A stretch of 64,000 nt of DNA from positions 770,159 to 834,158 of the forward strand of contig CAVTYE010000001.1 in NCBI GenBank assembly GCA_963738925.1, in the 5' to 3' direction. The position numbers and the translations under genes are program-made. Source of the DNA: an uncultured Chloroflexia bacterium. GTDB taxonomy: Bacteria; Chloroflexota; Dehalococcoidia; SM23-28-2; RBG-16-64-32. Position 1 is the first letter of the stretch. Each line of letters starts with the position of its first letter. Shown here one piece after another: positions 19,348-61,375 of this stretch. The notes below the pieces were generated by a model. That model did no database searches. It was not told where the DNA came from and saw only the letters and a program-made list of their open reading frames with translations.

Positions 19348-20266
19348 CTAGACCGCGACGCCGTGCTTGCCGGCGGGAAGCGTGAGGTCGATCTGCTGTG
19401 AGCCGACCTCAGCCATGATCGCCCGGGCGGCGGCATCGTCCGGTTCGCAGAGCGGAAGGCGGAAGCCGCCGACGCGGAAGCCCAGCTGGTTGAGCGCGAA
19501 CTTGACGCCGCCGGGGTTGCCCCAGGCCGTCATCAGGACGGTGAAGAGCGGCAGCAGGCGGCGGTGGAGCTCGGCGGCCTCTTCGTGTGAGCCTTCGAGG
19601 TGTGCGGCGATGCAACGTCGCATCTGCGCGCCGACGAGGTGGGAGGCGACGCCGATGGCGCCGTAGCCGCCGACGGACATGATCGGCAGCGTCATCCCGT
19701 CGTCGCCGCTCCAGACCCGGTACGTCGCCGGTGCGGCCTCGATGATCTGCGCGATCTGCAGCAGGTCACCGGACGCCTCCTTGACTCCGGCCATGTTCGG
19801 GATCTCGGCGAGGCGAAGCTGCGTGGCGACCGTGACGTTGACGGCGGTGCGGCCCGGGATGTTGTAGACGATGCAGGGCAGCGAGGTGGCCCCGGCGATG
19901 GCCGCGAAGTGGCGGTACAGGCCTTCCTGCGGCGGCTTGCTGTAGTACGGCGTGGTCAGCAGCACAGCGTCGGCGCCGGCTTGCTCGGCCGGCGGTCGTC
20001 AGCTCGATGCTTTCGGCGGTGTCGTAAGTGCCGGTGCCGGCGACGACTGCCCCGCGATTGCCGACGGCGGCCTTGACCTCGCTGAAGAGGCGGACTTTCT
20101 CGTCGTGGCCCAGCGTCGGCGACTCGCCGGTTGTGCCTGCCACCACCAGCCCGTCGCTGCCGCTGTCCAGGAGAGCCAGGGCGAGACGCTTGGCCTGCTC
20201 ATAGTCGACCTTCCCTTCGCTGTCGAAGGGCGTGACCATGGCGGTGAGCAGGCGTCCGATCTCCAT
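19348..20266 (-). pseudogene. dapA: 4-hydroxy-tetrahydrodipicolinate synthase, interrupted by a single +1 frameshift near 19990 in this sequence
   Basis: N-terminal half (MEIGRLLTAMVTPFD...ESIELT) and C-terminal half (LLTTPYYSKP...) lie in different frames. One extra g in gccggccgagc restores TAAEQAGADAVLL. ATG at 20266 follows GGAGG. Confidence 0.8.
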
Positions 20267-27272: not shown

Positions 27273-28055
27273 TGGCCGCACCGCCGTCTGCCGAGATCGC
27301 CGCGGAGGTGGTCCGCGCGCTCGAAGGTGGCCCGCGGGTGCTGGTGGCCACGGTGATCGCCGCGCCGGACGCTGAAGTGGTCGGCGCCAAGATGCTCGTA
27401 CGGGCGGACGGCTCGACCCTCGGCTCGCTCGGGCCGGCGCTGGACGCGGCGGTGTTGCGGGAGGCGCAGGACACGGTCCGGCCCCACGGCGTCTCCACGC
27501 TGTACGTCAACGCAGGCGGCGAGCCTGTCACGCGGCAGGAAGCGGCGGGGGCTTACGAGCTGATGATGGAGGTCCACGAGCGGCCGGCGCGGCTGCATCG
27601 TCGTCGGCGGCGGACACGTCGGCAAGGCCTGCTCCGTCATCGGGCAGATGTGCGGCTTCCGGGTGACCGTGATCGACGACCGGCCGGAGTACGCCAACGC
27701 CGAACGCTTTCCCGAGGCCGAAGAGGTGATCCGCGGCCGCTTCGACGAGGTTATGACGGACTACCCGATCGACGGGACGGCGTACGTCATCTGCGTGACC
27801 CGGGGCCACCGTCACGATGAGACGAGCCTGCGCTGTGTGATCGGACGGGGCGCTGCCTACGTCGGGATGATCGGCTCCCGGCGCCGGGCGGCCGCTGTGC
27901 TGCAGCACCTGCGAGACGAAGGCGCGGACCCGGAGGCCGTGGCCGCCGTGCGGACCCCGATCGGCATCGATATCGGGGCGGAGACGCCGGAAGAGATCGC
28001 GGTCGCCATCATGGCCGAGATCATCGCCGTGCGCAGGGGCGCGAAGAAGCGATAA
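27272..28055 (+). pseudogene. xdhC: XdhC/CoxI family molybdoenzyme maturation factor, +1 frameshift near 27593 in this sequence
   Basis: N-terminal XdhC_CoxI domain, then an XdhC Rossmann domain in another frame. Removing the c in ctgCatcgtc restores RLIVVGGGHVGKA. Confidence 0.7.
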
Positions 28056-35104: not shown

Positions 35105-35310
35105 GATTATCTGAGAAACACATTAGTTGTGGGTTAAAGAGCGATGACTGGTTATTAACGCCAGGACCAGCATTCACCAGTTCTGCTGAGAATCTTTCCG
35201 GCTCACCGGCTCTGCCCCGGCGGAGCACGGGTTGTATGATTCAAGTATCGAAAAGCATAGATTCTGGCACGATAAACCCGCCGCTGGCTTCAGTCTCTTC
35301 GGAGGAAATC

Positions 35311-36984: not shown

Positions 36985-39523
<2,539 letters not shown>

Positions 39524-43173: not shown

Positions 43174-43913
43174 AGCTGCGGCTGGCGCACCTCTACCCGA
43201 AGCTGATGAACATCTACGGCGACCGCGGCAACATCATCTGCCTGCGCCGCCGCTGCGAGGCCCGCGGCATCGAGTTCGAGGTGACGGATCTCGACGCCGG
43301 CGCTCCGTTCGACACGGCCGCCTACGACATGGCTTTCGTCGGCGGCGCGCAGGACCGCGAACAGGCCCGCGTCGCCGCTGACCTGCGCGACCTCAAGGGC
43401 GCGGCGATCAGGGCTGCTGTCGAAAAGGGGCTCGTCGTACTCGCGGTCTGCGGCGGCTACCAGATGGCCGGCCACTTCTACCGCGGCGCAGACGGCCACG
43501 AGCTCCCGGGGATCGGCATACTGGACCTGCACACTGTGCATCCGGGCCCGGTGGCGAAGCGCTTCATCGGCAACGTCGTCGTGGAGTGGAACGACGGGAC
43601 GCTGGTCGGCTTCGAGAACCACGGCGGCCGCACCTACCTGGGCCCGGACGCGAAGCCGCTGGGCAAGGTTGTCACCGGCTTCGGGAACAACGGCGCCGAT
43701 GGCTTCGAGGGCGCGGTTAGCGGGCGCGTCTTCGGCACCTACCTCCACGGCTCGCTCCTGCCGAAGAACCCCGCCTTCGCCGATCACCTGATCTCACTGG
43801 CGCTGGGCGGCGTATCACTCTCGCCGCTGGACGACACGATCGAAGCCATGGCCCACGCCGAAGCGGTGCGGCTGGCCACCCGGCGAAGTATCATGCGCAT
43901 CGGAGGGCGATAA
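43170..43913 (+). CDS. gatD: lipid II isoglutaminyl synthase, glutaminase subunit GatD (CobB/CobQ-type GATase)
   Basis: Catalytic Cys in AVCGGYQM. The start overlaps the murT stop (ATGA). Confidence 0.8.
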   Translation: MKLRLAHLYPKLMNIYGDRGNIICLRRRCEARGIEFEVTDLDAGAPFDTAAYDMAFVGGAQDREQARVAADLRDLKGAAIRAAVEKGLVVLAVCGGYQMAGHFYRGADGHELPGIGILDLHTVHPGPVAKRFIGNVVVEWNDGTLVGFENHGGRTYLGPDAKPLGKVVTGFGNNGADGFEGAVSGRVFGTYLHGSLLPKNPAFADHLISLALGGVSLSPLDDTIEAMAHAEAVRLATRRSIMRIGGR

Positions 43914-43914
43914 C

Positions 43915-44124
43915 GTGGAAACTGCAGCGCTTGAAGCGCCGGACATATCCTGCGACCACTGCATCCAGACGATCCGCTCTGCCGTGGAGAAGGTGCCCGG
44001 CGTGCGGTTCGTCTCCGGCGATCCGGAGTGCAAGATCGTGAAGATTGAGTACGACCCTGCGGTAGCGCACCTGGCCGCGGTTGAGAAGGCGATGGATGAA
44101 GAGGGCTACCCGGTCAAGAAGTAG
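43915..44124 (+). CDS. heavy-metal-associated (CopZ-like) metallochaperone
   Basis: 69 aa with a CxxC motif (SCDHC) in an HMA fold. GTG start 1 nt after the gatD stop. Confidence 0.6.
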   Translation: METAALEAPDISCDHCIQTIRSAVEKVPGVRFVSGDPECKIVKIEYDPAVAHLAAVEKAMDEEGYPVKK

Positions 44125-45100
44125 CGGCCCGGTCCGTGCTGTCGCGGCAATGGCGGTCCTCGCGGCCGCCCTTTTGCTGTTTGGCGCCTGTGGTGGCGGC
44201 TCGCTGGCGCTCTACGCCACGCCGACTCCGCCCAACACGATCGGTGCGGCGGCGGTGACCCCGCAGCCCACGCCGACGGCGACCCCGCTCCCATCGCTCG
44301 TGGAGTTGCTGTATACCGTGCAGTCCGGCGAGACGCTGAGCGGCATCGCCGACCAGTTCGGCGTTTCGCTAGACGATCTGGTCAGCTCCAACGGCCTCGC
44401 GGACGCAGGCGACATTACTGTCGGACAGGTGCTGACGATCCCGGGCGTCCTCGTGACGCCGGTGCCCAGCCGGACGCCGCCGCCGGTCACCACCTCTGCG
44501 GACAGCCCGATCGGCATCCACATGGCGATGCCGGTCGCCGGCGCCTGCCTGACGCCCGACGACGACCAGATGCCCAACGCCGTCCGCGACTACCGCGCCG
44601 GCATCCACGAAGGTGTCGACTTCTTCACCTCCTACGCCTGCGTCGACGTGGCCAAGGACTCGCCGGCGCTGGCCGCCGCCGATGGTGTCGTGATCCGCGC
44701 TGACCACGACTACCGGGCGCTGACCCAGCAGGAGATCGAAGATTTGGAGGCGCAGTCGGCGTCGCAGGGCTTCACATCCGAAGGCACGCTGGACAAGTTC
44801 CGGGGCCGCCAGGTCTGGATCGATCACGGCAACGGCATCGTGACCCGCTACTGCCACCTGGACGGGGTCCCCGCCGCGGTCCAGCCGGGCACGCACGTCG
44901 GCCAGGGCGACGTGATCGGGTTCATCGGCGACACCGGCACGCCGGAATCGGCCAGCAACCCGGACTTCGAGATCCACCTGCACTTCGAGATCAGGGTCGA
45001 CAAGTCCTACCTGGGCGCCGGCCTGGACCCGCTGGCCACCCGCAACCTCTACGAGCAGGTGTTCGGGCTGCCGCTGACCACGGCTGCGCCCGCTCCTTAA
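44081..45100 (+). CDS. LysM domain-containing M23 family metallopeptidase
   Basis: Signal/lipobox-like GACGGG, a LysM (YTVQSGETLSGIA), and M23 motifs HEGVDF and HLHFE. The 5' end overlaps the CopZ-like gene, so the true start may be an internal ATG. Confidence 0.7.
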   Translation: MRRRWMKRATRSRSSGPVRAVAAMAVLAAALLLFGACGGGSLALYATPTPPNTIGAAAVTPQPTPTATPLPSLVELLYTVQSGETLSGIADQFGVSLDDLVSSNGLADAGDITVGQVLTIPGVLVTPVPSRTPPPVTTSADSPIGIHMAMPVAGACLTPDDDQMPNAVRDYRAGIHEGVDFFTSYACVDVAKDSPALAAADGVVIRADHDYRALTQQEIEDLEAQSASQGFTSEGTLDKFRGRQVWIDHGNGIVTRYCHLDGVPAAVQPGTHVGQGDVIGFIGDTGTPESASNPDFEIHLHFEIRVDKSYLGAGLDPLATRNLYEQVFGLPLTTAAPAP

Positions 45101-45133
45101 TCCCCGTAGCGGCCGCTCAGCGTATCCTAAGCA

Positions 45134-45892
45134 GTGCTCATGAGTGAGGACACTAACGCAACGCCATCGCCGCAGCGCGGGGGACGCACCTTCGTGCGGC
45201 GTTTCATCTATCCCGCCGCGGTGATCCTGGCGATCGCCGGCGTCATCTTCCTGATCGAGCGCAGCAACGGCAACGCCACCGACTCCAACGGCCAGACCTA
45301 CGGCCTGCGGGACCTGGACTCGCACCTTGTCCCGGAGGGCGGACACGTGGCCGCTGAAGTTGGCGGCGTCGCGCCGGACTTCGAGCTGGAGCAGGTCTCG
45401 GTTCCGGTCGCCGGCGGCAGCCCCACCGCCAGCTCGACGACGAACGGCGAGGCCTGGCTGAGCGACTTCCGCGGACACCCGGTGGTGCTCAACTTCTGGG
45501 CAACCTGGTGCCGCCCCTGCCGCTCTGAGATGCCGCAGTTCGTCAACGCCTACGACAAGTACCGGGACAAGGGCCTCGTGGTCATCGGCCTAAACCTCCA
45601 GGAGGGGCCGTCGCTGATCCAGCCCTTCGCCCAGGAGTTCGGGATCGACTATCCGATCCTCGTCGACCGTACGGGGCAGGTCGGTGACAAGTACCGGCTG
45701 CTGGGCCTGCCGACGACGGTCTTCATCGACGCCAACGGCGTTATCCAGAGCATCTACAGCGGCCCACTCCAGGACACCCAGAACGACACCGACGTGCAGG
45801 GAGCGATCGACCAGTCGCAGCTTGAAGCCGGCATCGCTCAGATCATGGCGATCGCCACGCCGTCGCCGGGAGCCAGCAGTGGAAGCCCGTAA
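45134..45892 (+). CDS. resA: TlpA/ResA-like thiol-disulfide oxidoreductase (cytochrome c maturation)
   Basis: TM anchor plus a thioredoxin fold with WCRPC. Confidence 0.75.
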   Translation: MLMSEDTNATPSPQRGGRTFVRRFIYPAAVILAIAGVIFLIERSNGNATDSNGQTYGLRDLDSHLVPEGGHVAAEVGGVAPDFELEQVSVPVAGGSPTASSTTNGEAWLSDFRGHPVVLNFWATWCRPCRSEMPQFVNAYDKYRDKGLVVIGLNLQEGPSLIQPFAQEFGIDYPILVDRTGQVGDKYRLLGLPTTVFIDANGVIQSIYSGPLQDTQNDTDVQGAIDQSQLEAGIAQIMAIATPSPGASSGSP

Positions 45893-49629: not shown

Positions 49630-50910
49630 GTGCCTGTCCTTAGTCCAGACGAAAGATCGTTCGCCAAGCACCTCAGATGCAGGGAGTGCGGCCGCACCTA
49701 CGAGCTGACGCCCTCCAACGTCTGCGAGTACTGCTTCGGCCCGCTGGAAGTCTTCTACGACTACGAAGCGCTGAAGGGCCACCTGACGCGGAGGCGCATC
49801 GAAGGCGGCCCGCCGACGATGTGGCGCTACGCCCCGCTATTGCCCGTCGATGCCGCCACGGCAGTCGACATCGGCACCGGCTACACGCCGCTCTTGCGGG
49901 CGCCGAACCTGGGCCGGGCGCTTGGGCTGAGCCGCCTGTACATCAAGAACGACTGCCAGAACCCCACCTGGTCGTTCAAAGACCGCGTCGTTTCCGTGGC
50001 CAGCAGCGTCGCCCGCGCCTTCGAGTTCGATACGCTGGCCTGCGCCTCCACAGGCAATCTGGCCAACAGCGTCGCCGCCCACGCCGCCCGCGCCGGCATG
50101 CGCGCCTGCGTCTTCATCCCCTCTGACCTGGAGCAGGGCAAGATCATCGGCTCAGCGGTCTATAACCCGACGCTGGTCGCCGTCGACGGCAGCTACGACG
50201 ACGTCAACCGCCTCTGCAGCGAACTCGGCGACAAGTACCCCTGGGCCTTCGTCAACATCAACGTCCGCCCCTACTACGCCGAGGGCAGCAAGACCCTGGC
50301 CTACGAGGTCTGCGAGCAACTGGGCTGGCGCGCCCCGGACCACTGCATAGCGCCGATGGCCAGCGGATCGCTCTTCACCAAGATCTACAAGGGGATCAAG
50401 GAGCTGTCCTGGCTGGGCCTGATCGATTGGAACGGGACGCGGATGAGCGGAGCCCAGGCGCTGGGCTGCTCGCCGATCGCCGAGGCCTGGGGCCGCGGCA
50501 GCATGAACATCCGGCCGCAGAAGCCGAAGACGATCGCCAAGTCTCTGGCCATCGGCAACCCGGCCGACGGATACTACGCTCTGAAGATCATGAACGAGAC
50601 GAACGGAGCCGCCGCCGCCGTCACCGACGACGAGGTGATCGAAGGGATCAAGCTCCTGGCCGAGACCGAGGGCATCTTCGCTGAGACAGCGGGCGGCGTC
50701 GTCATCTCCGGGCTGCGGCAGCTGATCCGCGAAGGCAAAGTCGGCGCTGACGAAGTCGTCGTCGCCTTCATCACCGGCGCCGGACTAAAGACGCAGGAGG
50801 CCGTGGCGCCCGCGCTGCAACCGCCGCTGCAGGTCCAGGCCACCATCGAATCGTTCGAGCACGAGCTGGAAGAGCGCGAAGGCGGCCTTCCGCTGGCGAA
50901 GGCGGTGTAG
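49630..50910 (+). CDS. threonine-synthase-like PLP enzyme with N-terminal zinc ribbon (MetM-like homocysteine synthase candidate)
   Basis: CxxC-x13-CxxC ribbon, then a ThrC-fold with PLP lysine WSFKDR. A second thrC paralog in the window. GTG start 9 nt after GGAGG. Confidence 0.7.
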   Translation: MPVLSPDERSFAKHLRCRECGRTYELTPSNVCEYCFGPLEVFYDYEALKGHLTRRRIEGGPPTMWRYAPLLPVDAATAVDIGTGYTPLLRAPNLGRALGLSRLYIKNDCQNPTWSFKDRVVSVASSVARAFEFDTLACASTGNLANSVAAHAARAGMRACVFIPSDLEQGKIIGSAVYNPTLVAVDGSYDDVNRLCSELGDKYPWAFVNINVRPYYAEGSKTLAYEVCEQLGWRAPDHCIAPMASGSLFTKIYKGIKELSWLGLIDWNGTRMSGAQALGCSPIAEAWGRGSMNIRPQKPKTIAKSLAIGNPADGYYALKIMNETNGAAAAVTDDEVIEGIKLLAETEGIFAETAGGVVISGLRQLIREGKVGADEVVVAFITGAGLKTQEAVAPALQPPLQVQATIESFEHELEEREGGLPLAKAV

Positions 50911-50911
50911 C

Positions 50912-51154
50912 ATGGAGAGCCTGCGCGTAAAGTTCACATTCGTCGAAGATCTGATCAAGGAGCCGATCATCTGGAAGCTGGCCAAGGAGTTCGACGTCGT
51001 CACCAACATCCGCCGCGCCGACGTCACCGACGAACGCGGCTGGGTGGTCCTGGAGCTGGACGGTGACCGCGAAGAGATCGAACGCGGTTTGGAGTGGGTG
51101 CGCCAGAACGGCGTCCGCGTCGACCCGGTATACGAAGACATCGTGGAAGGTTAG
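50912..51154 (+). CDS. stand-alone NIL-domain protein
   Basis: 80 aa alignable to the MetN C-terminal NIL domain, including the N-I-x-x-A core (VVTNIRRA), a G-x-hydrophobic-ELDG segment and C-terminal V+V. Confidence 0.5.
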   Translation: MESLRVKFTFVEDLIKEPIIWKLAKEFDVVTNIRRADVTDERGWVVLELDGDREEIERGLEWVRQNGVRVDPVYEDIVEG

Positions 51155-51157
51155 GTC

Positions 51158-51433
51158 ATGGCCATAAACGTACGCATCCCGACGCCGCTGCGGAAGCTGA
51201 CCAGGGAAAAGGACATCGTTCAGGGCAGCGGCGATACCCTCGGCGAAGTGATCGAGACGCTGGAGGCGGAGTTTCCCGGCCTCAAGGACCGCCTCTGTGA
51301 CGAAACTGGCGAGCTGCGCCGCTTCGTCAACGTCTACGTGAACGGCGAAGACGTGCGGTTCCAGGACGGCCTCTCCACGCGCCTCACCGGCAACGACGAG
51401 GTCAGCATCGTCCCGGCCGTCGCCGGGGGCTAG
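51158..51433 (+). CDS. CysO/MoaD/ThiS-family sulfur carrier protein (MetO-like)
   Basis: 91 aa ending VPAVAGG. Core RFVNVYVNGEDVRF is like M. tuberculosis CysO. Confidence 0.75.
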   Translation: MAINVRIPTPLRKLTREKDIVQGSGDTLGEVIETLEAEFPGLKDRLCDETGELRRFVNVYVNGEDVRFQDGLSTRLTGNDEVSIVPAVAGG

Positions 51434-51435
51434 CG

Positions 51436-51942
51436 ATGGAAGAGCGGCTCAAGCACTGGAGACTCGCCCCCGGGGGTTACCACGCGCTCCTCGGCGTTGA
51501 CCGCTACGTCTACGACAGCGGCCTCGAACACTCGCTGCTGGAGCTGGTCAAGCTGCGCGCTTCACAGATCAACGGCTGCGCCTACTGCATCGACATGCAC
51601 TGGAAGGACGCCCGCGCCGGCGGGGAGACAGAGCAGCGCCTCTACTCGCTCAACGCCTGGCGGGAAGCGCCGTTCTACACGGACCGTGAGCGCGCCGCCC
51701 TGGACTGGACGGAGGCGCTGACCCTGATCTCGGAGACCCACGCCCCGGACGAGACGTACGCCGCGGTCCGGGCCCAGTTCAGCGAGAAGGAGACCGTCGA
51801 TCTCTCGCTGGCCATCGCCATGATCAACGCCTGGAACCGGATGAGCATCTCCATGCGCGCCCCTGAGGCCGGCATCTACGACCCCAGCCGCCGCAAGCAG
51901 GCCCCATCAGCGGCCCCGGCAAAGGCGTTGGGTGGCGACTGA
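51436..51942 (+). CDS. carboxymuconolactone decarboxylase (AhpD-like) family protein
   Basis: CxxC-H motif GCAYCIDMH. Confidence 0.75.
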   Translation: MEERLKHWRLAPGGYHALLGVDRYVYDSGLEHSLLELVKLRASQINGCAYCIDMHWKDARAGGETEQRLYSLNAWREAPFYTDRERAALDWTEALTLISETHAPDETYAAVRAQFSEKETVDLSLAIAMINAWNRMSISMRAPEAGIYDPSRRKQAPSAAPAKALGGD

Positions 51943-52063
51943 CTTCGGACTGACCCGGCCGCTATCCGCACACTCTTGACGCGACCGCGCCAGCCGCATA
52001 ATTTGGGGCTGCCATCCACAGCCACATCCCCGTCCTTGATGCCGCAGACCGGAGACAAGCCCA

Positions 52064-52312
52064 ATGCAAGACCCGGCGCTGGCCTTCATCCTTGAAGAGG
52101 CCCTGGCGCTGCTCGACGCCGGCGAAGCACCGGAGTCGATCATCGAACGCTTCCCGGAGGCGGCGGCGAAACTGAGGCCACTGCTCGATCTCGCCGGCAC
52201 CCTCAAGGAGACCGCCGAAGACGCGATCGAGGTGCCCATGGAAGCGCTGGAGGAGATCGGGGACTTTCTCCAGGAGCACTTTGACGAAGTGCTCGAACAT
52301 CGCACAGACTAG
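52064..52312 (+). CDS. small acidic hypothetical protein
   Basis: 82-aa ORF, codon usage consistent with the surrounding genes. No motif. Confidence 0.3.
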   Translation: MQDPALAFILEEALALLDAGEAPESIIERFPEAAAKLRPLLDLAGTLKETAEDAIEVPMEALEEIGDFLQEHFDEVLEHRTD

Positions 52313-52317
52313 GCGGC

Positions 52318-52812
52318 ATGGACCGCGTCGCAATCCAGGACCTCTACGACTATAACGGCTTCGCCTGGGAGCAGATCGCCGGAACCATCGCCGAAGCAGG
52401 CGAAGAGATCCTCGCCAGGAAAGTCCGGGGCTCCGGCTGGCCCGCCCTGGGTGATTGCCTGGCCCACATGGGTTTCGCCTACGACGTCTGGGTGACGAGG
52501 CTCAACGGCGCCGAGATGCTGGAGTTTCCCAAAGACCCCTCGTGGCCCCAGATCCAGGCCTACTGGCAGACCGTGCGTGAGCGCTTCAAGTCATACCTGG
52601 ACAGCTTGAGCGACGAACAGCTCCACACCGTGCGCGACATCGATGCTTTCGGCGGCACGCTGCGCTATCCGCCGGCCGACATCCTGGCCAACGTCGTCAC
52701 GCACGACGTTGCGCACCTGGGCGACGTGTCCACGCTTCTCTACCAGATGGGGCTGGAGATGCCTTCCGTGGCGTATCGGTTTTACACGGAGGCCAAATAT
52801 GAGTATTCTTGA
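52318..52812 (+). CDS. DinB-family (DUF664-like) protein
   Basis: 164 aa with DinB_2-type conserved His residues. Confidence 0.5.
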   Translation: MDRVAIQDLYDYNGFAWEQIAGTIAEAGEEILARKVRGSGWPALGDCLAHMGFAYDVWVTRLNGAEMLEFPKDPSWPQIQAYWQTVRERFKSYLDSLSDEQLHTVRDIDAFGGTLRYPPADILANVVTHDVAHLGDVSTLLYQMGLEMPSVAYRFYTEAKYEYS

Positions 52813-52838
52813 CGCGAAGCGGCTTATCAACATACAAT
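52809..52838 (+). promoter_or_regulatory. sigma70-like promoter TTGACG-N18-TACAAT upstream of the sulfite reductase gene
   Basis: A near-consensus -35/-10 pair in an otherwise high-GC genome, 43 bp upstream of the sir ATG. Confidence 0.35.
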
Positions 52839-52880
52839 TCTGACTAATCGGACTGACAAAGTCGACTTCAAAGGCGCGCT

Positions 52881-54704
52881 ATGACTGTTCAAGAGAAACC
52901 CTTCACCTTCGACGCTCACCCCAAGGTACCGGTGGACCTGCGGCCCGGCCGCATCTTCGTCACCCTTGACGAAGAGATCGACAACTACGAGATCGAAGCG
53001 GACCGCTACCGCGCCAACCGCGAAGAGCTGGAGGGCGAGTTCACCCCGTTCCGCCTGCGCATGGGCACCTACGGCCAGCGCCAGATGGACCAGCAGATGA
53101 TGCGGATCAAGCTCCCCTACGGCGGCATCGACGCCGACCAGATGGACGTTATGGCCGAGATCGCCGAGAAGTACTCCGGCCTCCGCCGCGGCCACATCAC
53201 CACCAGGGAGAACATCCAGTTTCACTTTGTCGACCTGATCAAGGCCGGCGACGTCATGCGCCTGCTCACCGGCGTTGGCCTGACCACGCGCGAGGCCTGC
53301 GGGCACACCGTCCGCAACGTCACGGCCTGCCCCTACGCCGGCGTCTCCGACCACGAGCTGTTCGACGTGACGCCGTACCTGGCGGCCTACGCCCGCAACA
53401 TGCTGCGCAACCCGATCTGCCAGAACATGCCGCGCAAGTGGAAGACCTCGTTCTCCTGTGGCCCGGTGGACTGCGCCGGCAGCCTCTTCCACGACATGGG
53501 CTTCGTCGCCGCCGTCAAGACCGAGGGCGGCAAGGAAGTCCGCGGCTTCAAGATGGTGGTTGGCGGCGGCACCTCCACGATGGCGCGCAAGGCTGAGACC
53601 CTCTACGAATTCGTAACCGCCGACGACGGACGCTACATCCGCGTCGCCGAAGCCGCACTCAAGGTGTTCGACAAGGAGGGTGGCTTCCCGCAGCTCCTGC
53701 GCAAAAACATGAACAAGGCGCGCGTCAAGTTCCTGGTCCAGAAGATCGGCATCGAAGAGTTCCGCCGCCAGGTCGAAGAAGAGCTGGCCGAGCCCTGGGC
53801 CGACGAGCCCCTGGACATGCACGCCCTGATGCAGCTGGCCCCGGAAGGCCCCACCCCCGGCGAAGCGCCCAACGGCATCCGCCCGGGCCCCGACTTCGAC
53901 CGCTGGGTCAAGACGAACGTCATCAAGCAGCGCCAGCCCGGCTACGTCGCCGTCACGATCACGGTGCCGATGGGCAACCTCTCCCCGGAGCAGTTCCGCG
54001 GTCTCGCCACGCTGATGCGGCGCTTCGCCGGCGGCAACGCCCGGACCCAGCAGAACCAGAACCTGGTCCTCCGCTGGGTGCGAGAAGAGGGGCTGCCTGC
54101 GCTCCACGCCGGCCTCAAGGAGCAGGGCCTCGGCGCGGCCGACGCCGGCTTCATCGCCGATACTGTCGCCTGCCCGGGCACAGACTCCTGCAAGATGGGC
54201 ATCACCTCCTCCCAGGGAGTCGGCTACGCGATCCGCGAGGCCGTCGAAACCTGGGGCTACGACGACGACCAGCTCGTCCAGAACATCAACATCAAGGCCA
54301 GCGGCTGCCCCAACGGCTGCGCCCAGCACCACCTGGCGGCGATCGGCCTGCAGGGCTCATCGTTCACCGCCAACGGCACCTCGATCCCCTGCTTCGATAT
54401 CTCGCTGGGCGGCGGCAACTACAACACGGAGGGCGGCGGCAAGTTCGGCGTCCGCGTCGCCCGCGTCCCTTCCAAGCGCGCACCGCTGGCGATCAAGAAG
54501 CTGATCGATCACTACGTAGCCAACCGCGAAAACGGCGAAGAGTTCGTGGCTTTCGTGGACCGCGTCGGCGCCAAGACGCTCGACCCGCTACTGGACGAGT
54601 TCAAGGAAGTCGGCCCGATCCACGAGGACATCCAGATGTACATGGACTGGGGCAAGGAAGAGCTCTTCGAGGTGGTCCGCGGCGAAGGCGAGTGCTCGGT
54701 CTAA
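52881..54704 (+). CDS. sir: assimilatory sulfite reductase (ferredoxin-dependent, siroheme/4Fe-4S hemoprotein)
   Basis: 607-aa monomeric NiR/SiR-type protein with a Cys cluster (CGHT...C...C). Confidence 0.85.
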   Translation: MTVQEKPFTFDAHPKVPVDLRPGRIFVTLDEEIDNYEIEADRYRANREELEGEFTPFRLRMGTYGQRQMDQQMMRIKLPYGGIDADQMDVMAEIAEKYSGLRRGHITTRENIQFHFVDLIKAGDVMRLLTGVGLTTREACGHTVRNVTACPYAGVSDHELFDVTPYLAAYARNMLRNPICQNMPRKWKTSFSCGPVDCAGSLFHDMGFVAAVKTEGGKEVRGFKMVVGGGTSTMARKAETLYEFVTADDGRYIRVAEAALKVFDKEGGFPQLLRKNMNKARVKFLVQKIGIEEFRRQVEEELAEPWADEPLDMHALMQLAPEGPTPGEAPNGIRPGPDFDRWVKTNVIKQRQPGYVAVTITVPMGNLSPEQFRGLATLMRRFAGGNARTQQNQNLVLRWVREEGLPALHAGLKEQGLGAADAGFIADTVACPGTDSCKMGITSSQGVGYAIREAVETWGYDDDQLVQNINIKASGCPNGCAQHHLAAIGLQGSSFTANGTSIPCFDISLGGGNYNTEGGGKFGVRVARVPSKRAPLAIKKLIDHYVANRENGEEFVAFVDRVGAKTLDPLLDEFKEVGPIHEDIQMYMDWGKEELFEVVRGEGECSV

Positions 54705-54793
54705 ATATGAGATGCGAGGTGTGAAAGCCCCGCGCCGCCCTGCGATGACCGGCGACCAAACAAGCAATAAATATCGGGAGGACAAACAAGGAA

Positions 54794-55516
54794 ATGAAGG
54801 AAGCAGTTAAGTACACGGCTGCGGACGTCGATGCGCTGAACGCTGAGCTGGGCGGCAAGTCGGCCGAAGAGATCGTCCGCTGGGCCGGGCAGGCTTTCGG
54901 GTCAGACATCAAGTTCGCCAACAGCTTCGGGGCGGAAGACGTCGTGATGATGGACATCATCGCGCGCATCTCCCCGAACATCCGCGTCTTCACCCTGGAC
55001 ACCGGCCGCCTCAACGACGAGACCTACGAGGTGATGGAGGCGACGCGGTTCAAGTACCCGGACATCAAGATCGAAGTCATGTTCCCGGACGCCGCCAAGG
55101 TCGAAGGGCTGACCCGCGAGAAGGGCTTCTTCTCCTTCCGCGACAGCGTTGAGTTGCGCAAGGAGTGCTGCGCCATCCGCAAGGTGCAACCGCTAAAGCG
55201 CGCCCTGTCCGACGCCAGCTCCTGGATGACCGGCCTGCGGCGAGATCAGTCCGTCACCCGCACCGACACCCCGGCCATCGAGTGGGACGAGGGCAACGGC
55301 ATGGTGAAGGTGAACCCGATCATCGAGTGGTCCAACGACGACGTCTGGGCCTACATCAAGACGAACAAGATCCCCTACAACAAGCTGCACGACAAGGGCT
55401 TCCCCAGCATCGGCTGCGCACCCTGCACCCGCGCCATCAAGCCCGGCGAGGACATCCGCGCCGGGCGCTGGTGGTGGGAGAACCCAGAGTTCAAGGAGTG
55501 CGGTCTGCACGAGTAG
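54794..55516 (+). CDS. cysH: adenylyl-sulfate (APS) reductase, Fe-S type CysH
   Basis: PAPS-reductase fold with CC...CxxC cluster ligands ([13 protein letters not shown]), indicating an APS-utilising enzyme. Confidence 0.85.
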
Positions 55517-55595
55517 CCCAAGCGTTTCAAGTCAACGAACGCATGTAGAGACGCCCCCCGGGGCGTCTCTATGGCGTAACTGGAATGGACAACAC

Positions 55596-56783
55596 ATGAC
55601 ACCCGGTGAAACAAATCCTGCCCACGGCGGGCGCCTGATCGACCTGGTGGCCGGCGGCAGCGAGGCGCAGGCCCTGCGCGAGCAGACGGCGAAGATGCCC
55701 GCCGTCACGCTCAACTCGCGGACGCTGTCAGACCTGGAGCTCCTGGCCGTCGGCGGCTACAGCCCGCTGGAAGGCTTCATGACCCAGGCCGACTACCGCG
55801 CCGTCGTCGATGGCATGCACCTGGCGGACGGGCTGCCCTGGTCGATGCCGATCACCCTCGCCGTCAGCGACGAAGAGGCGCAGTCGATCAGCGAGGGCGA
55901 CGACATCGCCCTAGCCGATGAGACCGGCCGCATCCTGGCCTCGATGCACGTGCGTGAGAAGTTCGGCTACGACAAGCGAGTCGAGGCGGAGAACGTCTAC
56001 CGCACCGAAGACGAAAAGCACCCCGGCGTGGCCGCCCTCTACGCGCAGGGCGACGTCCTGCTCGGCGGGCCGGTGCGGGTGCTGGAAGTCCCGGGGCACG
56101 ACGACTTCCCGGAATACCGGCTGACCCCGGCGCAGACCCGGGCCGCCTTCGCTGAGCGCGGCTGGCGCACGATCGTCGGCTTCCAGACGCGGAACCCCGT
56201 GCACCGCGCCCACGAGTACATCCAGAAGGCGGCGATGGAGATCGTCGACGGCCTGCTGCTGCACCCGCTGGTCGGCGACACCAAGTCCGACGACATCCCC
56301 GCCGACGTGCGGATGCGCTGCTACGAGGTCCTGATCGAGAACTACTACCCGGCCGGCCGCGTCGTCCTCTCCGTGAACCCGGCGGCGATGCGCTACGCCG
56401 GCCCACGCGAGGCGATCTTCCACGCGCTGGTGCGCAAGAACTTCGGCTGCACCCACTTCATCGTTGGCCGTGACCACGCCGGCGTCGGCAACTACTACGG
56501 GACCTTCGATGCCCAGCTCATCTTCAACGAGTTCGATTCCCAGGCGCTGGGCATCGTGCCGCTGATGTTCGAGCACTCCTTCTACTGCAAGAAATGCGAC
56601 GGGCTGGCCAGCGTCAAGACCTGCCCCCACGACGCCGAGTCCCGCGTCAGCCTCTCCGGCACCCAGGTGCGCGACATGCTGAAAGGCGGGATCGCGCCGC
56701 CGCCGGAGTTCTCGCGCCCGGAAGTAGCCGAAGTGCTGATCAAGGCGATGCAGGACCACGCGACGCCGCACCATGCGATCTGA
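55596..56783 (+). CDS. sat: sulfate adenylyltransferase (ATP sulfurylase)
   Basis: QTRN and GRDHAG motifs. Confidence 0.9.
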
Positions 56784-56792
56784 TGGGCGCAC

Positions 56793-56809
56793 ATACCCCA
56801 CCGGGGTAT
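56793..56809. promoter_or_regulatory. perfect palindrome ATACCCC-ACC-GGGGTAT overlapping a TACAAT -10-like element, upstream of rrf2
   Basis: 7-bp arms. Shares the 11-mer CCCCACCGGGG with the site upstream of csoR. TACAAT at 56813-56818. Confidence 0.4.
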
Positions 56810-56843
56810 GCTACAATGTTGACGGAGATTATCGGGAATAGGG

Positions 56844-57287
56844 ATGAAAGTATCGACAAAGGGTGACTACGGCATCCGCGCTCTGATTGAGCTGGCGCAC
56901 CACTACGGTGAGGTCCGGCCGACTCAGAGCAGCGAGATCGCTGCGCGCCAGAAAGTGCCGGAATCGTACCTGGAGCAGCTGCTGACGACGCTGCGCCGGG
57001 CCGGCTTCATTCGCAGCGTGCGCGGCCCCCAGGGCGGCCACGCCCTGGTCCGCGACCCGCGTGACCTGCGTGTCTCCGAGGTGATCGAGGCGCTGGAGGG
57101 GCCGATCATGCCCAGCGATTGCCTGGACGACGGCGGCGCCTGCGCCAAGGGGGGCGGCTGCGCCCAATCGGACATGTGGGCCTCCGTCCGCGAAGCGATC
57201 CTCGGCGTCCTGGACACGACAACCATCGCCGACCTGGCAGCACTGGACCGGGCGGCCCAACCAGTCGGCGCCCGGTACAACATTTAG
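56844..57287 (+). CDS. Rrf2-family transcriptional regulator (IscR/CymR-like, three-Cys type)
   Basis: N-terminal HTH (KGDYGIRALIELA...) and a C-terminal C-x6-C-x5-C cluster. Confidence 0.8.
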   Translation: MKVSTKGDYGIRALIELAHHYGEVRPTQSSEIAARQKVPESYLEQLLTTLRRAGFIRSVRGPQGGHALVRDPRDLRVSEVIEALEGPIMPSDCLDDGGACAKGGGCAQSDMWASVREAILGVLDTTTIADLAALDRAAQPVGARYNI

Positions 57288-57296
57288 GAGCAAAGA

Positions 57297-58220
57297 ATGG
57301 GCCAGAAGATAGCAGACAGCGTCCTCGACCTCGTCGGCAAGACGCCGATGGTCCGCCTCAGGCGGATCGTCCCGGCCGGATCGGCGGAAGTCCTGGGCAA
57401 GATGGAGTCGTTGAACCCGGCGGGCAGCGTCAAGGACCGCATCGCCCTCAACATGATCGAAGCGGCGGAGCGCGAAGGAAAGCTGAAGCCCGGCGACACG
57501 ATCATTGAGCCGACCAGCGGCAACACCGGCATCGGCCTGGCCATGGTCGCCGCCGTTAAAGGCTACAAGCTGGTCGTGACGATGCCGGAAGACATGAGCC
57601 TGGCCCGGCGCGACCTCCTGGCCCGCTACGGCGCCGAAGTCGTCCTGACGCCGGCGATCGAAGGCATGACCGGCGCCGTCTACGCAGCGCAGGAGCTGAT
57701 CGCCAAGAACAGCCAGCTACTTCATGTGCCAGCAGTTCGAAAACGCCGCCAACCCGGATATCCACCGACGCACAACCGCGCTCGGAGATCCTGGAGGCGA
57801 CCGAGGGCCGCCTCGACGCGTTCGTCGCCGGCGTCGGCACCGGCGGCACGATCACCGGCGTCGGCGAGGTGCTGCGCGAAAAGCTCGGCGCCGCGCTGCT
57901 GATCGTCGCGGTGGAGCCCTCGCGTTCGCCGGTCCTGGAAGGCGGCCGCGCCGGGGTCCACGCGATCCAGGGCATCGGCGCCAGCTTCGTGCCGGGCGTG
58001 CTGAACCGCGAGGTCTACAACGAGATCATCGCCGTCACCGACGAGGACGCGATCGAGATTTCGCGCCGGCTCTGTCGAGAGGAGGGGATGCTGGTCGGCA
58101 TCTCCGCCGGGGCCAACGTCTGGGCGGCCGATCAAAGTGGCCAAGCGCCTGGGCGCCGGCAAGCGCGTCGTGACTGTGCTTCGCGATACCGGTGAGCGAT
58201 ACTTGCAGATGGAGTCCTAA
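57297..58220 (+). pseudogene. cysK: cysteine synthase A (O-acetylserine sulfhydrylase), three +1 frameshifts in this sequence
   Basis: PLP lysine SVKDR, then in three further frames [24 protein letters not shown] and IKVAKRLGAGKRVVTVLRDTGERYLQMES. Each shift is a single inserted base. Confidence 0.8.
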
Positions 58221-58253
58221 AGTGCTGTCTGGATACAAAGATGAAAGTTAGCT

Positions 58254-59350
58254 GTGTACATCCCGACACCCTTCCGCCGCTTCGCGGGCAACCAGACCCG
58301 CGTCCACACGGAGGGCAACACCGTCGGCGAAGTGCTGGACCGGCTGGGCCAGGACTACCCTTCGCTGCGCAACATGATCTACGACGAGAAAGACGAGATC
58401 CCGGGCCACATCAACATCTACCTCAACAACACCGAGATCCACACGCTCCAGGGCAAGGCCACCATCGTCCACGACGGCGACGAGATGGCCGTGATCCCGG
58501 CCATCGCCGGCGGCGCCACGGCCCTGACCCCCGACCAGGTGGAGCGCTACTCGCGGCACATCATCATGCCGCAGGTCGGCCCTTCCGGGCAGCGCAAGCT
58601 GATGGAGGCGAAGGTGCTGATCGTCGGCGCGGGCGGCCTCGGCGGGCCGGCGGCGCTGTACCTGGCGCTGGCCGGCGTCGGCACCATCGGCATCGTCGAC
58701 TTCGACACCGTCGACCTCTCCAACCTGCAGCGGCAGGTGCTGCACCAGACCGCCGACGTCGGCAAGTCCAAGGCTCAGTCGGCCAAGGAGACCCTGAACG
58801 CCTACAACCCGGACGTCAAGGTGGTGCTGCACGAGACGCCGCTCACCTCCGACAACGCGATGGAGATCATCCCCCAGTACGACATCGTCGTGAACGGCGC
58901 CGACAACTTCACCACCCGCTACCTGGTCAACGACGCCGCGTACTTCGCCGGCAAGACGCTGGTGGACGGCAGCATCCTCCTCTTCGACGGGCAGGCCACG
59001 GTGTTCATGCCCGGCAAGGGCTGCTACCGCTGCCTCTTCCCCGCGCCGCCGCCGCCCGGCCTGGTGCCGAGCTGCGCCGAGGCCGGCGTCCTCGGCGCTC
59101 TGACCGGCATCATGGGCTCGATCCAGGCGACCGAGGCGATCAAGCATGATCCTGGAGATCGGCGAGCCGCTGGTCGGCCGCCTGCTCCTGGTCGATGCGC
59201 TGACGATGGAGTTCCGCGTCGTCAAGCTGCGGCGCGACCCGAAGTGCCCGCTCTGCGGCGACGACCCCGACGATCGAAGAGCTGATCGACTACGAAGGCT
59301 TCTGCGGTTCCCCGTTTCCCGGCGGCCACGAGGAACGGAGCCCAGCAGTC
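58254..59350 (+). pseudogene. moeZ: CysO/MoaD-like sulfur carrier fused to MoeB/MoeZ-type E1 adenylyltransferase, at least one frameshift near 59145. 3' end uncertain.
   Basis: N-terminal 87 aa ending AIAGG with HINIYLN. Continuous with RYSRHIIMPQVG and GAGGLGGP, then the CxxC...CPLCGDDP zinc motif in the next frame. No rhodanese domain. Confidence 0.6.
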
Positions 59351-59626
59351 ATGAGCATCAAAGTCAGCGTCACCGGCAGCATGCAGAAGGCGATCGGCGG
59401 CCAGAAGTCCGATCGAGGCGGAGGGCAGCACTGTCGCTCGCCGTCCTCGACGACGTCGATGCCAGGCATCCCGGCTTCAAGGACCTGGTGATGACGGAGG
59501 GCCGGCATCCATCGCTTCGTCAACATCTACCTGAACGATGAGGACGTCCGCTTCCTGGGCCAGCTCGACACCAAGCTGAAGGACGGCGACGTCCTCTCCG
59601 TCCTGCCCGCGCTCGCCGGCGGCTAG
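59351..59626 (+). pseudogene. cysO: sulfur carrier protein CysO, three +1 frameshifts in this sequence
   Basis: Conceptual repair gives MSIKVSVTGSMQKAIGGQKSIEAEGSTV-LAVLDDVDARHPGFKDLVMTEGR-IHRFVNIYLNDEDVRFLGQLDTKLKDGDVLSVLPALAGG, near-colinear with M. tuberculosis CysO. GGAGGAACGGAG RBS upstream. Confidence 0.7.
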
Positions 59627-59635
59627 CGAGACCCG

Positions 59636-60576
59636 ATGCTCGCTGAATCCATCCTCGATACGATCGGCAATACGCCGCTCGTCAAGCTGGCCAAGTTCAG
59701 CCCCAAGCCCGAGCGTCAACATCTACGCCAAGCTCGAGGGGCAGAACCCCACCGGCAGCGTCAAGGACCGCATCGCTGCTCTACATGATCCGCACGGCCG
59801 AGGCCAGCGGCGAGCTGACGCCCGACAAGACGGTGCTCGAGCCAACCAGCGGCAATACCGGCATCAGCCTGGCGATGGTCTGCCGGGCCAAGGGCTACCG
59901 GCTGGTCTGCGTCCTCCCAGACAACGTCACTGCCGAGCGCGAGTCGCTGTTGCGGGCCTTCGGCGCAGAGGTCGTCTACGCGGAGAACGCCACCAGCACC
60001 AACGACGCCGTCTTCAAGGCGCAGCGGATGCTGGCGGAGGACCCCGGCGCCTACTTCATGCCCTACCAGTACGGCAACGAGAACAACCCCCGCGCCCACT
60101 ACGAGACGACCGGCCCCGAGATCCTGCGCGACCTGCCGGAGATCGACATCTTCGTGGCCGGCCTGGGCACAGGTGGCACTTTGACCGGATGCGGCCACTT
60201 CCTGAAGGACAACCGGCCCGGCGTCAAGATCATCGCGGCGGTGCCCCACCCGGGCGACCTCGTGAGGGGCTGCGCGCTGTCGAGGAAGGGTTCATCCCGC
60301 CGGTGCTCGACGAGTCTGTGCTGGACGGCCGCATCGTCGTCGATTCGCTGGCGGCGTTTCGCGATGGCCAAAGAAGTGATGGAGAAAGAAGCGGTCTTCA
60401 CCGGCATCTCCGCCGGCGCGGTGCTGACCGTCGCCGTCCGCGCCGCCGAACGGCTGGAGCGCGGCAACGTCGTGGCGCTGCTGGCCGACGGCGGCTGGAA
60501 GTACCTCTCTACGGGTCTCTGGAGCCGCGACTACGGCGAGTCCCCGGAAGAGACGCAGGGCAAGATCTGGTGGTGA
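59636..60576 (+). pseudogene. cysM: CysM-type cysteine synthase (O-phosphoserine/CysO-thiocarboxylate dependent), about four indels in this sequence
   Basis: Segments [41 protein letters not shown]...EPTSGNTG and GLGTGGTLTG lie in alternating frames. Confidence 0.75.
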
Positions 60577-60602
60577 AAGGCTTCCGTTTTGGCCGGGCGC
60601 TG

Positions 60603-60982: not shown

Positions 60983-61375
60983 ATGCGCCTGCCCCAGGAC
61001 TTCGTCGACGAGATGGTGGCCCACGCCGTGGAGGACGCCCCCAACGAGTGCTGCGGCATCATCGCCGGCAAGGACGGCGCGGCGACCAAGCTCTACCGCG
61101 CGCGCAACTCGGAGGCCAGCCCCTACCGCTACAGCGTCGACCCCAAGGACCTGCTCCGCATCTTCCACGAGTGTGAGGACAACGACTGGTCGTTCCTGGC
61201 GATCTACCACTCCCACACCGCCAGCGAAGCCTACCCCTCCGGCACCGACGTCCGCCTGGCGTTCTGGCCGGAGGCCCGCTACGTCCTGGTCTCGCTGGCC
61301 CAGGAGAAGCCGGTTGTGCGCGCCTTCCGCATCGAAGAAGGCACCGTCACCGAAGAACCGATCGAGACGGCGTAG
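60983..61375 (+). CDS. mec: JAMM/MPN+ metalloprotease (Mec+-like CysO-cysteine peptidase)
   Basis: JAMM motif E...HSHTASEAYPSGTD plus the CCGII pattern. Confidence 0.8.
   Translation: MRLPQDFVDEMVAHAVEDAPNECCGIIAGKDGAATKLYRARNSEASPYRYSVDPKDLLRIFHECEDNDWSFLAIYHSHTASEAYPSGTDVRLAFWPEARYVLVSLAQEKPVVRAFRIEEGTVTEEPIETA

Follow-up and report, generated by a model that had tools for sequence, protein, structure and literature searches.

The cysteine biosynthesis locus of the window, a 64,000-nt stretch of contig CAVTYE010000001.1 from an uncultured Chloroflexia bacterium, raises the question of whether its broken reading frames reflect gene loss in the organism or errors in the assembled sequence. 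Using frameshift-aware protein-to-DNA alignment and a MAFFT DNA alignment with seven relatives, we found 14 one-base indels between positions 57716 and 60362 (Table 1), 13 insertions and one deletion. An earlier note on this DNA had counted at least 11 single-base indels in this block, nearly all of them inserted bases; the observation is borne out, but the number was understated, and one event is a missing C in cysM. The breaks assigned to cysK (three), cysO (three) and cysM (four) were found as proposed, and the gene called "moeZ", for which at least one break had been given, carries four. The indels are specific to the window. The comparison with orthologous loci that had been suggested as a check showed them missing from all 7–11 relatives aligned, and not one occurs in any of 11 relatives, including two with 92–93% amino-acid identity and identical gene order.

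Taking out 13 bases and adding one yields four full-length reading frames (306, 369, 90 and 312 aa), and their 1,077 codons contain no internal stop. It also recovers an ATGA overlap, in which the TGA stop of the "moeZ" gene overlaps the ATG of cysO. The four repaired proteins are 84–93% identical to their closest orthologues. Corrected CysK scores 429 bits on the TIGR01139 cysK equivalog model, above the cut-off of 351, and is 92% identical to the orthologues on two related contigs, L081 and L082. Corrected CysM reaches 342.5 bits on TIGR01136 (cysKM), slightly below the cut-off of 344.15, and is 91–93% identical to its orthologues on L081, L082 and L002. Corrected CysO obtains 50.0 bits on TIGR01687 (cut-off 49.5). 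The product of the second gene is a MoaD-like domain fused to an E1 adenylyltransferase with its true start at ATG 58241. Both PF02597 and PF00899 occur in all of its best 120 homologues, and its N-terminal 91 aa match SAMP1/MoaD (66 vs 60). The fusion passes the MoeB subfamily model NF004281 (301 bits, cut-off 266). On the MoeZ equivalog NF005902 it obtains 378 bits, well short of the cut-off of 647, the match being confined to profile positions 4–275 of 392, and it lacks a rhodanese domain. This corrects the earlier name moeZ. If the extra base close to the end of this gene is left in place, the fusion reads through into cysO.

Table 1. Genes and one-base indels of the window (positions are those of the window).
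Feature	Position	Strand	Evidence or remark
Isolated +1, dapA (gene about 20266 to 19348)	19987..19993	-	GC3-phase scan, DNA alignment, Pfam
Isolated +1 (G), ychF (25793-26876)	26621	+	DNA alignment to contig L086; Pfam
Isolated +1 (C), xdhC (27272-28055)	27596	+	DNA alignment; Pfam
Isolated +1, copA (36985-39523)	38925..38926	+	DNA alignment, Pfam
Intact upstream control genes	52881..57287	+	sir 52881-54704, cysH 54794-55516, sat 55596-56783, Rrf2/CymR-like regulator 56844-57287
cysK (cysteine synthase A)	57297..58220	+	306 aa after removal of 3 extra bases
Extra base 1 (G or C), cysK	57716..57717	+	Alignments to relatives
Extra base 2, cysK	57781..57785	+	Alignments to relatives; placement ambiguous in CTCGG, about 57782
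Extra base 3 (C or G in GCCG), cysK	58128..58130	+	Alignments to relatives
MoaD/ThiS-like domain fused to MoeB/ThiF-type E1 adenylyltransferase	58241..59354	+	369 aa after removal of 4 extra bases
Extra base 4, E1 fusion	58251..58253	+	DNA alignment; ten bases past the true ATG
Extra base 5 (T or G), E1 fusion	59147..59148	+	Alignments to relatives
Extra base 6 (in CCCCG), E1 fusion	59265..59269	+	Alignments to relatives
Extra base 7 (G), E1 fusion	59330..59333	+	Alignments to relatives, incl. contig L003; 7 codons ahead of the stop
cysO-like MoaD-family sulfur carrier, C-terminal GG	59351..59626	+	90 aa after removal of 3 extra bases
Extra base 8 (A, or adjacent G or C), cysO	59412	+	Alignments to relatives
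Extra base 9, cysO	59436..59439	+	Alignments to relatives
Extra base 10, cysO	59502..59506	+	Alignments to relatives
cysM-like cysteine synthase	59636..60576	+	312 aa; 3 extra bases removed, 1 missing base restored
Extra base 11, cysM	59708..59712	+	Alignments to relatives
Extra base 12 (T or G), cysM	59777..59778	+	Alignments to relatives
Missing base, cysM	60264..60265	+	Alignments; C of a CAG codon found in all relatives; sole deletion
Extra base 13 (C or G), cysM	60362..60363	+	Alignments to relatives
Intact JAB/MPN (desampylase- or Mec-like) protease gene, downstream of the block	60983..61375	+	PF14464 on orthologues; NF041370
Isolated +1, folP (about 63723 to 62871)	63388	-	DNA alignment, Pfam

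Five lone shifts had also been proposed elsewhere in the window, and Pfam frame coverage and DNA alignments bear out all five, each as a +1 insertion. In dapA the DHDPS domain is matched over positions 3–93 in one frame and 92–284 in the other; in folP, Pterin_bind is split in the same way (1–84 and 81–244), as is Hydrolase in copA (2–97 and 98–191). In xdhC the domains XdhC_CoxI and XdhC_C follow in consecutive frames. The C-terminal domain of YchF begins in the shifted frame, and corrected YchF is matched over 100% of its length by 360-aa homologues. Three of these genes, dapA, folP and ychF, are essential or near-essential. A GC3-phase HMM and a Pfam check of odd places revealed no further frameshift in the whole window, with the limit that compensating pairs less than ~60 nt apart could escape the scan outside the region covered by relatives. 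Three candidates were rejected: 4486/5482 represents a GNAT and a GT4 gene that share one frame, the phase excursion at 35848–36217 a PT/RTX repeat protein, and 43902–45892 separate M23 and AhpC/TSA genes.

The indels are strongly clustered. Their density is 5.3 per kb in the block vs 0.08 per kb elsewhere (P = 4e-16 in a binomial test with a fixed 2.65-kb interval), or about one event every 190 bp in the patch and one every 12 kb outside it. The local enrichment described earlier is thus genuine, at about 65-fold rather than 40-fold. All 19 events in the window are one base long, 18 of them insertions and one a deletion (P = 4e-5 under a 1:1 ratio). The gaps between the 14 block events range from 24 to 896 nt and are roughly exponential (CV about 1.2), the inserted bases track base composition, and random insertion accounts for their statistics with respect to codon position and homopolymers. 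As had been stated, the insertions are not a homopolymer phenomenon: four of the 13 in the block could have lengthened a stretch of 2–4 identical bases, where random insertions would give 52%, and the other nine are not of homopolymer type.

Artefact and decay can be told apart without reads by stripping the indels and then comparing dN/dS, dS and replacements at invariant sites with those of intact neighbours. The upstream genes sir, cysH and sat, described earlier as clean, indeed align over their full length without gaps. The NG86 dN/dS of the corrected block genes was 0.10, 0.10 and 0.08, with 0.07–0.16 for the intact neighbours; the value for cysO was 0.33, which is also that of L081 vs L082. 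The dS of the block equals that of its neighbours. Among alignment columns that do not vary across 11 relatives, the window departs from the shared residue in 3 of 597 in the block; for sir, cysH, sat, rrf2 and the metY-like gene the figure is 5 of 1059. Amino-acid branch lengths specific to the window run from 0.052 to 0.083 in the block and from 0.034 to 0.116 in the intact neighbours. Thus, by dN/dS, dS and invariant-site replacements relative to the neighbours, selection on the corrected genes has not relaxed, and purifying selection acts undiminished on the codons that surround the indels. Neither nonsense codons nor a deletion bias were seen in the block. A foreign origin or raised divergence of the block was rejected, as its DNA identity to L081/L082 is 84–85% inside and 83–88% outside.

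The window proteins sit on one 1,631,477-bp contig at NCBI and ENA, and a single MAG contig of 1.63 Mb, as is typical of long-read MAGs, strongly suggests a long-read assembly. Independent sequence is available for part of the locus. Two Logan contigs from run ERR11718635 (L084 and L085) match 51589–55143 and 56307–57532 with 5 SNPs in 4.8 kb and no gaps; four of the five SNPs lie inside sir, sat or rrf2, and none of these four alters the protein. The Logan assembly of this run is fragmented here, a contig ending at 57532, short of the first indel site. Among contigs encoding the flanking genes or the corrected proteins, none from the same strain spans any of the 19 sites. Ten variants of corrected CysK, CysM and E1 were absent from a collection of 15 billion proteins. 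Nor does that collection contain an intact CysK, CysM, E1 or CysO of this strain; its best CysO and E1 homologues are 88% and 93% identical, and therefore it offers no reference from the same species. A related long contig shows similar extra bases: compared with L082, which an independent Logan contig matches at 100% identity, the ENA contig L081 has five extra single bases (two in folK and one each in the JAB, rhodanese and Na/Pi-cotransporter-like genes).

We consider it very probable that all 19 events, the 14 in the block as well as the five isolated insertions, arose through faulty base-calling or consensus building in a long-read metagenome contig and are not mutations of the organism. 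We favour this reading because removal of the indels restores conserved full-length reading frames without relaxed selection; the +1 insertions in dapA, folP and ychF also count for it and against decay of cysteine genes. The earlier preference for residual long-read consensus error over decay is therefore upheld by the restored frames, by selection as in the neighbours, by the 18:1 excess of insertions and by the 1.63-Mb contig. The narrower attribution to PacBio CLR reads goes beyond what the sequence shows. Frameshifts from residual indels are well described for long-read assemblies and become worse at low coverage (PMC9262707; bioRxiv 10.1101/2021.08.23.457338). As in the published cases (IDEEL-type truncated proteins; proovframe, bioRxiv 10.1101/2021.08.23.457338; Sereika et al. 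2022, PMC9262707; Polypolish, PMC8812927, for errors surviving short-read polishing), the events are of one base only, the genes are split over adjacent frames, and the contig is of megabase scale. Two features differ. Published Nanopore residual errors mostly concern homopolymer length, whereas 9 of 13 block insertions are of another type and 18 of 19 window events are insertions; insertions outside homopolymers are not what Nanopore consensus error typically produces, and they count against the artefact reading. Also, the present events are concentrated 65-fold in one 2.7-kb patch. Clustering of this degree is not expected from uniform random error, and an extra local cause is therefore needed. 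We infer both the in silico origin of the indels and the reason for their clustering; the hot-spot would be a roughly 2.7-kb patch with a consensus built from poorer evidence than elsewhere, such as too few reads, reads from mixed strains or a stretch missed by polishing.

Local low coverage, raised in the earlier note, is one of several possible causes. A patch with few long reads, skipped polishing or raw-read bridging, in which insertion-biased errors survive, is a plausible though tentative explanation of the hot-spot. It agrees with the near-exponential spacing, the composition-like inserted bases and the lack of excess substitutions, with the break in the Logan assembly at this place, and with the increase of residual long-read indels at falling coverage (PMC9262707). 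Neither GC content (0.65–0.69) nor repeat content, however, accounts for a local drop in coverage.

A mixture of at least two close strains, separated in this block by numerous SNPs of mainly synonymous effect (as a recombination could leave behind), might produce the same patch if both alleles were written in tandem, giving one-base insertions. We regard this form of artefact as possible, on the doubtful side. Close strains exist, as the gap-free Logan contigs show, and many of the insertions are compatible with a doubling of the third codon position into two synonymous alternatives, mostly ending in G or C (e.g., CT[C/G], GC[C/G], CC[C/G], CG[C/G], GC[T/G]). With the isolated sites read manually, 12 of 18 insertions fit such a reading vs 40% expected (p = 0.02). 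An objective tie test on the block insertions found 7 of 13 in agreement, vs 0.40 expected from 3,000 random insertions generated by simulation (p = 0.24), and 10 of 13 are compatible with the third slot, equal to the random expectation of 0.80. In addition, any insertion beside a differing base formally fits a doubled allele, and the window has no insertion at any of the five known SNP sites. Third-position doubling, though conspicuous on inspection, was thus rejected as an established signature and is kept only as a sub-hypothesis.

Systematic error linked to a motif, such as a methylated motif that disturbs base-calling in a motif-rich block, appears improbable. Ten of the 19 sites have CGAG/CTCG no more than 8 nt away, vs 3.4 expected (p = 6e-4 uncorrected), and in several cases the 4-mer arises only through the inserted base. 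Correction for 97 four-mers, however, brings p to about 0.06, and to higher values over all k tested, and CTC and GAG are common codons here. No other motif was found around the 19 sites, and GATC was not enriched. Furthermore, a genome-wide motif effect would not yield a local cluster of this kind.

Genuine and very recent inactivation of the cysteine genes, with sulfide routed to homocysteine, had been left open as an alternative, and we find it very unlikely. It would explain why the disrupted frames fall in one functional unit, and a second sulfur-carrier module upstream (ThrC-like, NIL and MoaD-like, 49630–51433) could take over the sulfide. The strain has also lost a Na/Pi-cotransporter-like gene of ~1.1 kb that lies between sat and rrf2 in all relatives, and therefore some real change has occurred at the locus. 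Several frameshifts in neighbouring genes of one pathway resemble bacterial pseudogene decay, e.g., in Mycobacterium leprae, recent host-restricted pathogens and symbionts. Unlike in such decay, there are no nonsense codons and no excess of replacements, dN/dS and dS are unchanged, the bias is toward insertion instead of deletion, and essential genes elsewhere are equally affected by the same type of insertion. In bacterial mutation spectra, base substitutions outnumber indels roughly ten-fold, and indels are deletion-biased. Fourteen real indels should therefore bring ~100 or more substitutions in 2.65 kb, where the data allow ~10 at most, as estimated from the 3/597 replacements. That the extra bases are real in some other way, brought in by a burst of mutation confined to insertions in the cysteine operon, or removed again by recoding of the RNA or at the ribosome, in a Dehalococcoidia-related strain and too recently for substitutions to have followed, is similarly hard to credit. 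Programmed recoding in particular (+1 ribosomal frameshifting, transcriptional slippage or RNA editing restoring the frame in vivo) can be practically dismissed: nothing speaks for it beyond the perfect frames obtained on single-base removal, no shared slippery motif was found at the sites, the sites are conserved in 0 of 11 relatives, and we know of no bacterial precedent for fourteen recoding sites in four genes.

If the indels are consensus errors, the four block genes are most likely intact in the living cell. Judging by gene content, they probably form, with the JAB/MPN protease (NF041370, E = 6.6e-24, under the model cut-off), a working sulfur-carrier-dependent cysteine module adjoining sir-cysH-sat. 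The E1 would activate CysO, the CysO-thiocarboxylate would be used by CysM, and the protease would release cysteine, with a conventional CysK alongside. Such thiocarboxylate-dependent cysteine biosynthesis by CysO-CysM-MoeZ-Mec was reportedly described in Mycobacterium tuberculosis by Burns and colleagues in 2005. The likeness, drawn from the genes, lies in a GG-ending MoaD/ThiS-like carrier, a CysM-type PLP enzyme, an E1-type adenylyltransferase and a JAB/MPN protease, here next to sulfate-reduction genes. Unlike M. tuberculosis MoeZ, the E1 has an extra N-terminal MoaD-like domain and no rhodanese domain, and the cluster has an additional conventional cysK.

Taken together, we conclude that the frameshift cluster is almost certainly not a real feature of the organism. 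Its biological weight is slight, and its weight is practical for users of this MAG. Automated annotation will call cysK, cysM, cysO, the E1 gene, dapA, folP, ychF, xdhC and copA pseudogenes or fragments; such calls would lower completeness scores, and this uncultured Chloroflexota lineage could be wrongly predicted to be auxotrophic for cysteine, lysine and folate.

The genes cysK, a moeZ-like gene, cysO and cysM are each spread across several frames in the ORF list for 54-64 kb. In the same list sir, cysH and sat are each one unbroken ORF, as the earlier note had described them. Using Sat as probe we retrieved 80 related loci; in the closest, from Dehalococcoidia/Chloroflexota MAGs, gene order is the same. 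Indels were placed by frameshift-aware protein-to-DNA alignment and by MAFFT DNA alignment of 57260-60600 with seven relatives. The two methods agreed on 14 one-base indels unique to the window, one of them a deletion; the frameshifts that the earlier note had reported are thus present, but its count of at least 11 was too low. The true start of the moeZ-like E1 gene is the ATG at 58241, and its first insertion follows ten bases later. Two in-frame 3-nt gaps relative to relatives differ from these one-base events and are ordinary variation in length as it occurs in nature: the one at ~58514 concerns a codon of the linker that follows the MoaD-like domain of the E1 fusion, the one at ~63021 a Gly codon of folP.

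An HMM with seven states, based on GC content by codon position (GC3 = 0.91, GC2 = 0.42 in this genome), was run over the whole window and checked against the ORF map. Phase jumps without stop codons occurred exactly at the five isolated sites proposed before, in dapA, ychF, xdhC, copA and folP. All five are +1 shifts, and at each of them both frames match successive parts of one Pfam profile. Three other odd places proved ordinary: a same-frame gene pair, a PT/RTX repeat protein and an M23 + AhpC gene pair. In the repeat protein (35236-36564, 442 aa), disordered PT-rich repeats occur together with four calcium-binding RTX repeats; codon-position GC is atypical in the middle (35848-36217) and mimics a frame change there, although one frame is open throughout. 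With 14 indels in 2,647 bp vs 5 in the remaining 61 kb, the local excess noted earlier is 65-fold rather than about 40-fold (P = 4e-16, fixed window). Insertions outnumber deletions 18:1 over all 19 events.

Coordinates of the features in the window, except where contig L081 is named
Feature	Position	Details	Basis
dapA extra base	19987-19993	DHDPS 3-93 in one frame, 92-284 in the other	Reading frames; Pfam
ychF extra G	26621	C-terminal YchF domain starts in shifted frame	DNA alignment to relatives; Pfam
xdhC extra C	27596	XdhC_CoxI then XdhC_C across two frames	DNA alignment to relatives; Pfam
copA extra base	38925-38926	HAD hydrolase 2-97 and 98-191 in two frames	Reading frames; Pfam
folP extra base	63388	Pterin_bind 1-84 and 81-244 in two frames	DNA alignment to relatives; Pfam
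cysK extra bases	~57716, ~57782, ~58128		Both alignments
E1 gene extra bases	58251, 59147, 59265, 59330		Both alignments
cysO extra bases	59412, 59436, 59502		Both alignments
cysM extra bases	59708, 59778, 60362		Both alignments
cysM missing C	60264/60265	Single deletion	Both alignments
Second sulfur-carrier module	49630-51942	ThrC-like PLP enzyme (426 aa), NIL-domain protein, 91-aa MoaD/SAMP1-like protein, CMD-family protein	
sir	52881-54704	Single clean ORF	ORF list
cysH	54794-55516	Single clean ORF	ORF list
sat	55596-56783	Single clean ORF	ORF list
Rrf2 regulator	56844-57287	Single clean ORF	ORF list
JAB/MPN protease	60983-61375	Two genes downstream of E1 fusion	
SNPs, window vs Logan	52180, 53234, 56696, 56991, 57077		ERR11718635 contigs
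L081 extra bases	7926, 13115, 13476, 13484, 15946	Split or alter genes	Comparison with L082

When the 13 extra bases are taken out and the missing one is put back, the four ORFs have 306, 369, 90 and 312 codons with zero internal stops, and the ATGA overlap of the E1 stop and cysO start is brought back. With the corrected E1 protein as query we found closer relatives on two long contigs, L081 and L082 (93% identity, identical synteny). Three comparisons with relatives show no loss of constraint in the block. In the four corrected genes the amino-acid branch specific to the window measures 0.052-0.083, vs 0.034-0.116 in the intact neighbours (metY-like gene, sir, cysH, sat, rrf2). Of the alignment columns that do not vary among 11 relatives, the window deviates at 3/597 in the block, in part owing to the arbitrary choice of base to delete, vs 5/1059 in the neighbours. 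Nei-Gojobori dN/dS against L082 is 0.10, 0.10 and 0.08 in the block and 0.07-0.16 in the neighbours; the cysO value, 0.33, equals that between L081 and L082. dS is alike within (0.43-0.60; cysO 0.28) and outside the block (0.45-0.53). In bacterial mutation spectra substitutions are about ten-fold commoner than indels, and indels are deletion-biased. Because of this ratio, 14 real indels would be accompanied by ~100+ substitutions and several stops in 2.65 kb, whereas we estimate that ~ten substitutions at the very most would be compatible with the data. Evolutionary pseudogene decay is therefore excluded, by too few substitutions and the lack of stops in the corrected ORFs.

At 429 bits, corrected CysK exceeds the cut-off of the cysK equivalog (351), "CysM" scores slightly below the cysKM subfamily cut-off, and CysO is a MoaD-family carrier with a C-terminal GG. 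The name moeZ does not hold: the protein reaches 378 of the 647 bits of the MoeZ equivalog and has no rhodanese domain. It joins a MoaD/SAMP1-like domain to a MoeB/ThiF-type E1, an architecture (PF02597+PF00899) found in 120/120 best homologues. In the corrected fusion (58241-59354) the N-terminal MoaD/ThiS-like domain has an internal ...AIAGG motif followed by a short linker, and the JAB/MPN protease could process the fusion after GG. Together with this protease the block resembles the mycobacterial CysO-CysM-Mec system. Upstream of sir lies a second sulfur-carrier module, intact and kept in L081/L082, which is the MetM/MetO-like homocysteine route of the earlier note.

Exact look-up places the window's proteins on one contig of 1,631,477 bp in NCBI and ENA, a length that is typical of a long-read MAG. 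Long-read assemblies are known to contain residual indels that cause frameshifts, more so at low coverage (PMC9262707; bioRxiv 10.1101/2021.08.23.457338); errors surviving short-read polishing lie where reads map unreliably (PMC8812927). L082 agrees at 100% identity with an independent Logan contig. Relative to L082, five extra single bases lie in the ENA contig L081, in the genes for folK (two), JAB, rhodanese and a Na/Pi-cotransporter-like protein, so insertion-type frameshifts recur among long contigs from this clade. From run ERR11718635, two Logan contigs align without gaps to 51589-55143 and 56307-57532 and differ from the window by 5 SNPs, which indicates that a second, very close strain (~0.1% divergence) is present in public data. 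Read by codon, the four SNPs that fall within sir, sat and rrf2 are all synonymous; the one at 52180 is outside this count. The second of these contigs stops 184 nt short of the first indel, and look-ups of flanking genes and corrected proteins found no independent sequence across any of the 19 sites.

The likeliest explanations of the clustering are locally reduced effective coverage and a strain-variable segment. In a strain mixture both alleles of a SNP could be written down, giving an extra base, and by eye most insertions do resemble a doubled third codon position with two synonymous alternatives. In the block, however, this holds for 7/13 vs 40% in 3,000 simulated random insertions (p = 0.24, not significant); adding the isolated sites gives 12/18 (p = 0.02), which is suggestive only, as the scoring is partly subjective. 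A motif-linked error is borderline: CGAG/CTCG lies within 8 nt of 10/19 sites (3.4 expected; p = 6e-4 uncorrected) and at several is created by the extra base itself, but p is ~0.06 once corrected for multiple tests. Homopolymer-type insertions make up 4/13 in the block, below the 52% expected by chance (longest run 4 bases), in line with the earlier observation that the insertions are not in homopolymers. Block composition and divergence showed nothing unusual. The sat-rrf2 interval of the window is a 60-nt spacer (56783-56844), where all relatives have a ~1.1 kb gene (L081 7425-8625, L082 7423-8625), with a weak or faint Na/Pi-cotransporter Pfam match in L081/L082. The loss of this gene, ~0.9 kb upstream of the indel cluster, is evidently real, because the Logan contig matching 56307-57532 has the window's arrangement.

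Taken together, the stop-free corrected ORFs, unchanged dN/dS and predominance of insertions support the original proposal of long-read consensus error rather than decay, that is, a very probable assembly artefact. A real origin would require an insertion-only burst without substitutions, to which we give a very small residual chance. As an artefact, the indels would have practical importance, yet no biological importance.
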